IMG/VR virus record: IMGVR_UViG_2861084961_000002
Source of the DNA: a virus
Lineage: Duplodnaviria; Heunggongvirae; Uroviricota; Caudoviricetes
Strand: one strand, 5' to 3'
Length of the DNA: 47,167 nt
A program made the position numbers and the translations under genes. Below the pieces are notes generated by a model. The model worked only from the letters and a program-made list of their open reading frames with translations, was not told the origin of the DNA and did not search any database. How positions within the stretch are numbered: the stretch's first letter is position 1; every line of letters begins with the position of its first letter. Below are positions 7,711-9,266 of this stretch, piece after piece.

Positions 7711-7782
7711 TATTCCTTCGCTACCATCCATTGGAGGCCATCCTTCCTGACCATTTCCATCATTCCAGTCGAACTCACACTG
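7711..7782 (-). pseudogene. 3' fragment of the early-left gene split by the IS insertion (partner fragment 9031-9266)
   Basis: Removing the IS and one copy of the 3-bp duplication restores a continuous frame ...YGVVCEFDWNDGNGQEGCGLQWMVAKE* ending at 7710-7712. Confidence 0.55.
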
Positions 7783-7810
7783 AAGTGGTCAACAAAAACT
7801 GGCCACCGAG

Positions 7811-8704
7811 TTAGAGTTTTTTCCAGTATCGATTTTCCGATTCGTTTGGTGGTAACCCACCATTATATTCGTGCGGTCTTAGTGCGCTGTAATATCCAAC
7901 GATATAGTCCGTTATTGCGTGAGCTGCATCGCTGAAGCTTACATAGCCCGTCGCCGGCACCCATTCGTTCTTCAGACTCCTGAAGAAGCGCTCCATTGGG
8001 CTGTTATCCCAGCAGTTTCCACGCCGACTCATACTCTGCCTGATCCGGTATCTCCACAGTAACTGCCGGAACTGCCTGCTCGTATAATGACTGCCTTGAT
8101 CGCTGTGGAACATCACCCCGACGGGCTTACCACGGGTTTCCCATGCCATTTCCAGTGCTTTCATGGTAAGCCTGCTGTCCGGCGAGAACGACATGGCCCA
8201 GCCCACTGGTTTTCTTGCGAACAGGTCGAGAACAACGGCGAGGTACGCCCAGCGCTTACCCGTCCAGATATAGGTCACATCACCGCACCACACCTGATTT
8301 GGTTCCGTTACGGCGAACTGTCGCTCAAGATGATTCGGGATAGCAACGTGCTCATGACCGCCACGCTTATACCGGTAAGTCGGCTGCTGACAGCTGACCA
8401 GCCCCAGCTCTTTCATGAGTCTGCCAGCAAGCCAGCGCCCCATCTGGTAGCCTCTCTGGGTTGCCATTGTGGCGATGCTTCTTGCTCCGGCAGAGCCGTG
8501 GCTGATGCCATGCAGTTCAAGTACCTGGCTGCGTAATACAGCCCGTCTGCCGTCTGGCTTTTCAGGACGGTTTTTCCAGTATTTGTAGCTGCTGCGATGG
8601 ACCCCGAACACATGGCAGAGAGTGGCCACAGGATAACGCGCCCTGAGTTTCCCGATTATCGAGAACTGTTCAGGGAGTCTGACATCAAGAGCGCGGTAGC
8701 CTTT
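7811..8704 (-). CDS. IS3-family transposase OrfB frame (DDE domain), expressed as OrfAB fusion by -1 frameshift
   Basis: Track ORF 7811-8629 plus in-frame upstream extension to the slippery heptamer at 8701-8707. Confidence 0.8.
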
Positions 8705-8958
8705 TTTAATATTTCATTTTCCATTTCAATACGTTGTAGCTTTTTCCTGAGCTCACGGATTTCAATTTGTTCCGGGGTAATGGGGGAGGCTTTTGGTGTT
8801 TTTCCCTGCCGCTCATCACGTAATTGTTTCACCCATCGCGTCATTGTGGAAAGGCCGACATCCATAGCGCTGGCTGCATCTGCCACGGTGTAATTCTGGT
8901 CAACGACCAGTTGAGCGGATTCGCGTTTAAACTCTGCGCTGAAATTTCTTTTTTTCAT
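8656..8958 (-). CDS. IS3-family transposase OrfA (HTH and leucine zipper)
   Basis: 100-aa product [51 protein letters not shown]... inside track ORF 8656-8994. Confidence 0.85.
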
Positions 8959-9030
8959 TATGGCACCTGTGTTGTTCTGAGGTGAGCATATCACCTCTGT
9001 TCAGGTGGCCAAATTCAGTAAACCACTTCA

Positions 9031-9266
9031 CACACAACACCATATGCATTTAAGTCGCTTGAAATTGCTATAAGCAGAGCATGTTGCGCCAGCATGATTA
9101 ATACAGCATTTAATACAGAGCCGTGTTTATTGAGTCGGTATTCAGAGTCTGACCAGAAATTATTAATCTGGTGAAGTTTTTCCTCTGTCATTACGTCATG
9201 GTCGATTTCAATTTCTATTGATGCTTTCCAGTCGTAATCAATGATGTATTTTTTGATGTTTGACAC
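9031..9266 (-). pseudogene. 5' fragment (78 codons) of a hypothetical early-left gene interrupted by the IS911-like element
   Basis: Track ORF 9015-9266 reads out of the flank into the IS end, where it hits a stop after 5 codons. Confidence 0.6.

Follow-up and report, generated by a model that had tools for sequence, protein, structure and literature searches.

Insertion of ISEc52 into the early gene ea10 of a lambda-like prophage

The insertion sequence (IS) IS911 of Shigella is the best-studied element of the IS3 family and transposes by a copy-out/paste-in route through a circular intermediate. Members of this family are ~1.2-1.55 kb long, end in 5'-TG...CA-3', carry an A6G-type -1 frameshift site and duplicate 3-4 bp of the target. 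The present analysis concerns an IS911-like element, ISEc52, in a lambda-like prophage of the IMG/VR record IMGVR_UViG_2861084961_000002 (Caudoviricetes; the whole stretch of 47,167 nucleotides is called the window below). The element interrupts the early gene ea10. It is very probable that this is an ISEc52 insertion in a dispensable gene, creating a probable null allele, read through on induction and seeding further decay of the prophage.

In lambda (J02459), ea10 encodes a protein of 122 amino acids with the DUF2528 domain (AAA96574, with the old label 'ssb') and lies downstream of tL2a and upstream of cIII; the interrupted gene of the window shares all of these characters. Ea10 is an abundant early protein that was formerly mistaken for Kil (PMC3961180). 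Its role is described as 'not fully understood' (bioRxiv 10.1101/2024.10.31.621285), and a single interaction is known for it in the lambda interactome (PMC3224144). The gene was nonessential in a genome-wide CRISPR interference screen of lambda (PMC10695390). Lambda 366/1390 (Kleckner, Smith) offers a precedent, as a viable lambdoid phage with an IS in ea10 (PMC2327257). It differs from the present case in the element, which is IS10 of the IS4 family and not an IS3-family member, in its laboratory origin and in the site within ea10.

IS-mediated prophage decay is known from the cryptic lambdoid prophages DLP12 and Rac and from IS629 in O157 prophages. An IS in an accessory gene is followed there by IS-adjacent loss of the immunity/replication region. 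The locus described here is not different in kind; the window and the prophage of Escherichia coli E5 represent two successive steps of this process at near-zero divergence.

The interrupted gene and the element

When 7781..9033, which comprises the IS and one CAC copy, is taken out of window 7400..9500, 848 bp remain that are 100% identical to ev099 (LR597635), a phage with a genome record in GenBank. Lambda contains the joined site of 81 bp as well, and CAC is single-copy at the empty site of both phages. Since the deletion product matches the empty site of ev099 perfectly, the IS boundaries and the 3-bp duplication are exact and not a product of chance. A first-pass annotation, made from the letters alone, had described an IS with a target duplication splitting a small early-left gene. 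The inverted repeats, the CAC on both sides and the empty site of ev099 support this description. The position between cIII and N, which it had also proposed, was confirmed (cIII at 7432..7572, N at 10010..10411).

The features of the element and of the split gene are as follows.

7781..9030, minus strand: ISEc52 (IS3 family, IS3 group, IS911-like), 1250 bp, apparently intact; transposase genes co-directional with pL transcription
7781..7807: right inverted repeat (IRR), the orfB-distal end, beginning TGAAGTGG; full repeat TGAAGTGGTCAACAAAAACTGGCCACC
9004..9030: left inverted repeat (IRL), upstream of orfA, ending CCACTTCA
7778..7780: left CAC of the 3-bp target-site duplication, directly outside the IS end
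9031..9033: right CAC of the 3-bp target-site duplication, directly outside the IS end
8656..8958, minus strand: orfA, 100 amino acids, helix-turn-helix transposase protein (Pfam HTH_Tnp_1, E = 6.1e-14)
7811..8629, minus strand: orfB frame with the DDE (rve) catalytic domain (Pfam rve, E = 1e-31; also rve_3)
8701..8707, minus strand: slippery heptamer A AAA AAG, the -1 programmed frameshift site
7645..7780, minus strand: 3' fragment of ea10, from the last base of codon 79 to residue 122 and TGA; identical to ea10 of ev099
9034..9266, minus strand: 5' fragment of ea10, with the GTG start at 9264-9266
9015..9266, minus strand: chimera of 83 amino acids, Ea10 residues 1-80 followed by VVY and a stop

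The restored open reading frame (ORF) lies on the minus strand, extends from GTG at 9264-9266 to TGA at 7645-7647 and encodes 122 amino acids, MSNIKKY...AYGVVCEFDWNDGNGQEGWPPMDGSEGIRITDIDTSGIFDSDDMAIKAA. A continuous ORF at the same position is found in ev099. Joining the flanks minus one CAC had been correctly recognized by the first-pass annotation as the way to an intact ORF; the length of 101 amino acids given for it was wrong. That ORF was in the correct frame as far as '...GNGQEG' and continued from there with an out-of-frame tail, 'CGLQWMVAKE', where the true continuation is ...QEGWPPMDGSEGIRITDIDTSGIFDSDDMAIKAA. A 100-aa product ending in ...GLQWMVAKE arises only if 4 bp are removed, as against 122 amino acids with 3 bp removed. 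The left limit of the locus had been set at 7711 and should be 7645, given the stop codon at 7645..7647. The acidic character ascribed to the product was borne out (pI 4.3; 22 D+E versus 8 K+R).

The gene had been taken for an unidentified one from the region of ral and ea10. On the evidence of sequence it is lambda ea10 itself. The restored ORF differs from ea10 of lambda by 2 nt, which change the start from ATG to GTG and account for T118A, the single amino-acid change; beyond these, the gene of the window differs from that of lambda by the interruption. The identical gene of ev099 is annotated as Ea10. The protein matches Pfam DUF2528 (PF10800) over profile positions 1-104 of 104, with E = 3.7e-47 and 159.6 bits against a cut-off of 22. 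The matching PHROG family, phrog_646, is of unknown function. The GTG start is common to ea10 of the window and of ev099, and lambda has ATG. Most matches in E. coli genomes align only to base 368 of 369 in ea10, which suggests that ATG is the commoner start.

The element has the length, the TG...CA inverted-repeat ends, the overlapping orfA and orfB with an A6G site and the 3-bp duplication of the IS3 family. Its inverted repeats are imperfect, being 78% complementary over 27 nt. With a -1 shift applied at 8701-8707, the predicted OrfAB frame is open for 382 amino acids, and the copy at 7781..9030 looks intact and potentially active. A comparison with 5426 complete E. coli genomes gave a full-length identity of 100% to the copy in E. 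coli E5 and an identity of 99% to many other copies on chromosomes and plasmids. The near-identical copies are all labelled 'IS3-like element ISEc52 family transposase' by the NCBI annotation pipeline PGAP. Judged by this identity, the element is ISEc52, the name being taken from the PGAP annotation of these copies. The annotated copies of ISEc52 share with it the 1250 bp, the orfA/orfB organisation and the frameshift site, and no difference was found.

IS911 proper was ruled out. The nucleotide identity of the element with the annotated IS911 of Shigella phage Sf6 is 93.8-94.1%, below the ~95% that is usual in ISfinder practice for calling two copies the same IS. The first-pass wording, 'IS911-like', remains fair as a description of ISEc52: the two elements share the length class, the TGAAGTGG...CCACTTCA ends, the 3-bp duplication, the A AAA AAG heptamer and an OrfAB of 382 amino acids. 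By analogy, ISEc52 presumably uses the same copy-out/paste-in route. The earlier assignment to the IS3 family, with inverted repeats and a CAC duplication, also stands; the length of 1248 bp reported with it is to be replaced by 1250 bp. A hybrid outward promoter from IRR was considered as well and rejected: there is a TTGACC at 8 bp from the tip, but inspection by eye showed no acceptable -10 in the flank at a spacing of 16-18 bp.

According to the proposed course of events, ISEc52 would have transposed into codons 78/79 of ea10 in a lambda-like prophage, duplicating 3 bp, with its transposase made by -1 frameshifting between orfA and orfB. The break in the gene lies at codons 78/79. The insertion would leave the 83-aa N-terminal chimera, parted from the 42 C-terminal residues with the conserved motif. 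Residues cut off beyond the break include F81, E90, G91, W92, P93, M95, D96, G97, S98, G100, I101, K102 and I103, which are invariant or nearly so in the family (K102 is R102 in Ea10 of the window). The most conserved family motif, F81 ... E90-G-W-P-P-M-D-G-S-E-G-I, thus falls in the 3' fragment, and in the structural model residues 101-107, which form strand 3 of the predicted sheet, would be severed too. Because this most conserved C-terminal motif is removed, ea10::ISEc52 is most likely a null allele.

The pL operon and the derived prophage of E. coli E5

The gene order exo-bet-gam-kil-cIII-ea10-...-N-pL is canonical for lambdoid phages. The features of the operon on either side of the IS are the following.

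7432..7572, minus strand: cIII, the pL-operon gene nearest downstream of the IS
7527..7585: cIII thermoregulator (Rfam Lambda_thermo, E = 1.9e-21)
9293..9314, minus strand: terminator-like hairpin with a T-run just upstream of ea10, at the position of lambda tL2a and of the 3' end of the small RNA LPR1
10010..10411, minus strand: N antiterminator ORF, intact, upstream of the IS (Pfam N36, E = 2.5e-26)
~10489..10522, minus strand: nutL, with boxA-like GCTCTTAA and boxB GCCCTGAAGAAGGGC
10562..10590, minus strand: pL promoter, TTGACA-17-GATACT

The segment from N to pL is 93.6% identical to lambda. The position of LPR1 and tL2a follows a published description of LPR1 as an Hfq-bound small RNA encoded between ea10 and ral (bioRxiv 10.1101/2024.10.31.621285). 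Window 9280..9417, with the tL2a-like terminator and the LPR1 region, is 99% identical to lambda up to 9417, and the IS leaves this region untouched. An Rfam scan of 7000-11000 matched only the cIII thermoregulator.

As pL is repressed in the lysogen, the insertion would be without cost to the host, and the dispensability of ea10 would make it tolerable to the phage. After induction, polymerase modified by N and loaded at nutL would read through the IS, so that cIII, kil, gam, bet and exo could still be expressed. Such read-through is expected by analogy with classical N antitermination; N-modified polymerase is said to suppress the polarity of IS insertions, a finding that reportedly goes back to Adhya, Gottesman and de Crombrugghe in 1974. 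Since N and nutL are intact upstream, polarity is probably relieved on induction.

E. coli E5 (NZ_CP104521; a poultry isolate from the USA) equals window 1..9032 bar one homopolymer base and has the identical IS copy in the same position. This sole difference over the left 9 kb lies in an A-run at 3088..3095 (A6 versus A7) and could be a sequencing error or real slippage. Directly after the IS end, E5 (L003 10399..10402) resumes at window 16868, collinear, just upstream of rusA. The deletion comprises 7.8 kb (window 9033..16867) and has removed the 5' part of ea10, a 167-aa ORF, N, a gene for an NYN-domain protein, cI, cro, cII, O, P and the nin genes. Its start coincides exactly with the tip of the IS, and the IS may act as a seed for further decay. 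Such a loss is what would be expected to come next in the IS-driven decay of a prophage, and the window and E5 form a near-isogenic pair, with the IS insertion as step 1 and the IS-adjacent 7.8-kb deletion as step 2. The insertion is ordinary and of little weight alone. PGAP already marks both of its parts in E5, as 'ISEc52 family transposase' and as 'DUF2528 family protein, incomplete'; the event is ordinary IS-driven decay, already visible in public annotation.

Alternative explanations

The IS could instead be strongly polar, in which case cIII, kil, gam, bet and exo and the pL-driven xis and int would be off and the prophage, poor at excision and recombination, would be effectively locked in. 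Polarity on cIII, kil and the Red genes had been raised as a possibility by the first-pass annotation. IS elements are classically polar, and this one lies inside the operon, upstream of all the genes named. The derived prophage of E5 has, moreover, lost the immunity and replication region, and such a loss may be fixed more easily if the prophage was already crippled. However, pL, nutL and N are intact upstream of the IS, and the suppression of IS polarity by N-modified polymerase, mentioned above, argues in the same direction. A terminator scan predicted no intrinsic terminator-like site within the IS on the minus strand, which is the pL-sense strand, and this crude consensus scan, which is blind to Rho-dependent termination, recovered the expected sites at 9293-9314 and 7602-7621. 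Primary stocks of lambda 366/1390, with IS10 in ea10, reach ~1e10 plaque-forming units/ml (PMC2327257). Strong polarity is therefore unlikely, and read-through of the IS on induction is preferred. Some points weigh against the reading preferred here. Both the null status of ea10 and the absence of polarity are what we infer for this prophage; boxA of nutL is one base off that of lambda; and a scan of the kind used would pass over Rho-dependent sites. The E5 deletion, in turn, may be an IS-mediated adjacent deletion, a recombination with a second IS copy since lost or a microhomology deletion ending at the IS tip. These routes cannot be told apart because of the 2-4 nt CA/CACA microhomology at the junction.

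IS hits in the dispensable early-left segment are commonplace. An independent ISEc52 insertion in ea10, in the same orientation and at the equivalent of window 9207, is present in BEC1-S17-ESBL-07 (NZ_AP022295, L004 4324..5574); it lacks a target duplication and borders at its other end on a truncated sieB, with an adjacent deletion. Two poultry strains with an early region 100% identical to the window, HCM-28C-2 (L008 1869..3097) and APEC E12049 (L009 3780..5008), contain sibling prophages that carry IS2 instead, one between ea10 and a 164-aa ORF (tL2a/LPR1 area) and the other inside the gene of the NYN-domain protein. The two ISEc52 insertions in ea10 (window/E5 and BEC1-S17-ESBL-07) and the two IS2 insertions close by, each pair independent, would agree with selection of the insertion, whereby the loss of ea10 or a damped expression of kil and gam benefits the lysogen, for example through less toxicity from leaky or transient pL activity. 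The abundant synthesis of Ea10 from pL and a kil::IS2 lambda lysogen listed as a laboratory strain (PMC3961180) point the same way. Yet ea10 is covered to at least 80% in 1466 of the 1479 complete E. coli genomes that carry it at an identity of at least 95%, which indicates retention and not counter-selection, and the neighbouring IS strike different targets (an intergenic site and the NYN gene), as would random insertions in dispensable DNA. The literature on pL-operon toxicity and on the origin of the 'ssb' label gave nothing useful, and toxicity data for Ea10 were not found. Selection is quite improbable as the cause of the insertion that we ascribe to ordinary transposition. There is hardly any chance that the junctions arose in assembly, through collapse or false joining of a repeat at an IS copy, even if short-read assemblies are often broken or misjoined by IS elements and the Logan contigs that bear on the point end inside the IS. 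The 3-bp duplication and the empty-site reconstruction are perfect, and the left junction is 100% identical in E5, an independent complete genome. The right junction, with the exact 83-aa chimera, occurs in independent read sets, on 3 Logan contigs, one of which (SRR23232111) matches the window over 10,266 bp with 100% identity. No complete E. coli genome covers at least 80% of the right junction, because E5 carries the adjacent deletion. The representatives of GTDB gave no match to it, which is uninformative with only one genome per species.

The Ea10 family and the prophage setting

At an identity of at least 95%, ea10 is present in 1479 of the 5426 complete E. coli genomes (~27%). Homologues of Ea10 with identities down to ~38% occur in Salmonella, Klebsiella, Serratia, Citrobacter and a few other gammaproteobacteria. 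As a lambdoid early gene, ea10 is very common and conserved, and it is still without a known function. The only non-trivial reading concerns the disrupted gene and not the insertion.

The structure of Ea10 was predicted from an alignment of 72 sequences. The model (pLDDT 95.1, pTM 0.87) comprises a beta hairpin, four helices and a further strand. The homology and structure search proposed by the first-pass annotation yielded the full-length DUF2528 match in sequence and no significant match in the PDB: Foldseek found none for the model, and searches with the Ea10 sequence and with the 72-sequence profile returned nothing significant, only DotZ at E = 0.9. Among the predicted viral protein structures of BFVD, there was only one match, a viral protein of 121 amino acids (E = 1.8e-5), which is probably a distant member of the Ea10 family.

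A role as a single-stranded DNA-binding protein, as in the 'ssb' label, was rejected. The predicted fold is not an OB fold, and the historical label is therefore without structural support; the strong acidity of Ea10 (pI 4.3) does not favour nucleic-acid binding either. Homology with Ral or with other anti-restriction proteins was likewise discarded, as only families of unknown function were matched in Pfam and PHROG. The host-takeover or anti-restriction function that had been suggested for the gene found no support in these families or in a PADLOC scan of Ea10, which gave no match, the PADLOC models being those of defence and not of anti-defence.

The best structural neighbours of the model are weak ones, the SPFH domains of HflC and HflK. 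A Pfam scan of all 72 family members for Band_7/SPFH at E <= 10 gave none. HflC and HflK are modulators of FtsH, and the neighbouring gene cIII encodes an FtsH inhibitor. The resemblance of the predicted fold to SPFH domains is a weak lead only, curious in view of the neighbour cIII. That Ea10 might act on the FtsH-HflKC axis as a soluble SPFH-like factor, and might hence affect CII stability and the lysis-lysogeny decision, is a very long shot on the basis of the model. Natural ea10::IS alleles beside the near-identical active ev099 would make the idea directly testable.

The prophage lies at the lambda att site next to ybhC, with the att core at 1331-1345; an attR core was not found within the window. 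It is a close mosaic relative of ev099, with an identity of 99.97% across window 1331..7780 and of 96-98% across most of the remainder. The homology with ev099 ends at 46414, near an IS1 copy that occupies the right end of the window (46470..47167; InsA of 91 and InsB of 167 amino acids).

The gene ral is absent: the homology with lambda jumps from position 3265 to 3606 of the locus, skipping ral at 3297-3567. The slot of lambda sieB/orf28/ral is occupied by the 167-aa ORF on the opposite strand (window 9514..10017, plus strand), which has no Pfam or PADLOC match, belongs to phrog_1244 (unknown function) and is rich in cysteine at its C-terminus, CAQC...CHRC. This ORF may represent a superinfection-exclusion or defence moron. 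Between N and cI, at the position of lambda rexAB, lies the gene of the NYN-domain protein (285 amino acids; window 10815..11672, minus strand; phrog_5783). It shows weak PADLOC matches (HEC-09, NYN) and may be a prophage-encoded defence nuclease.

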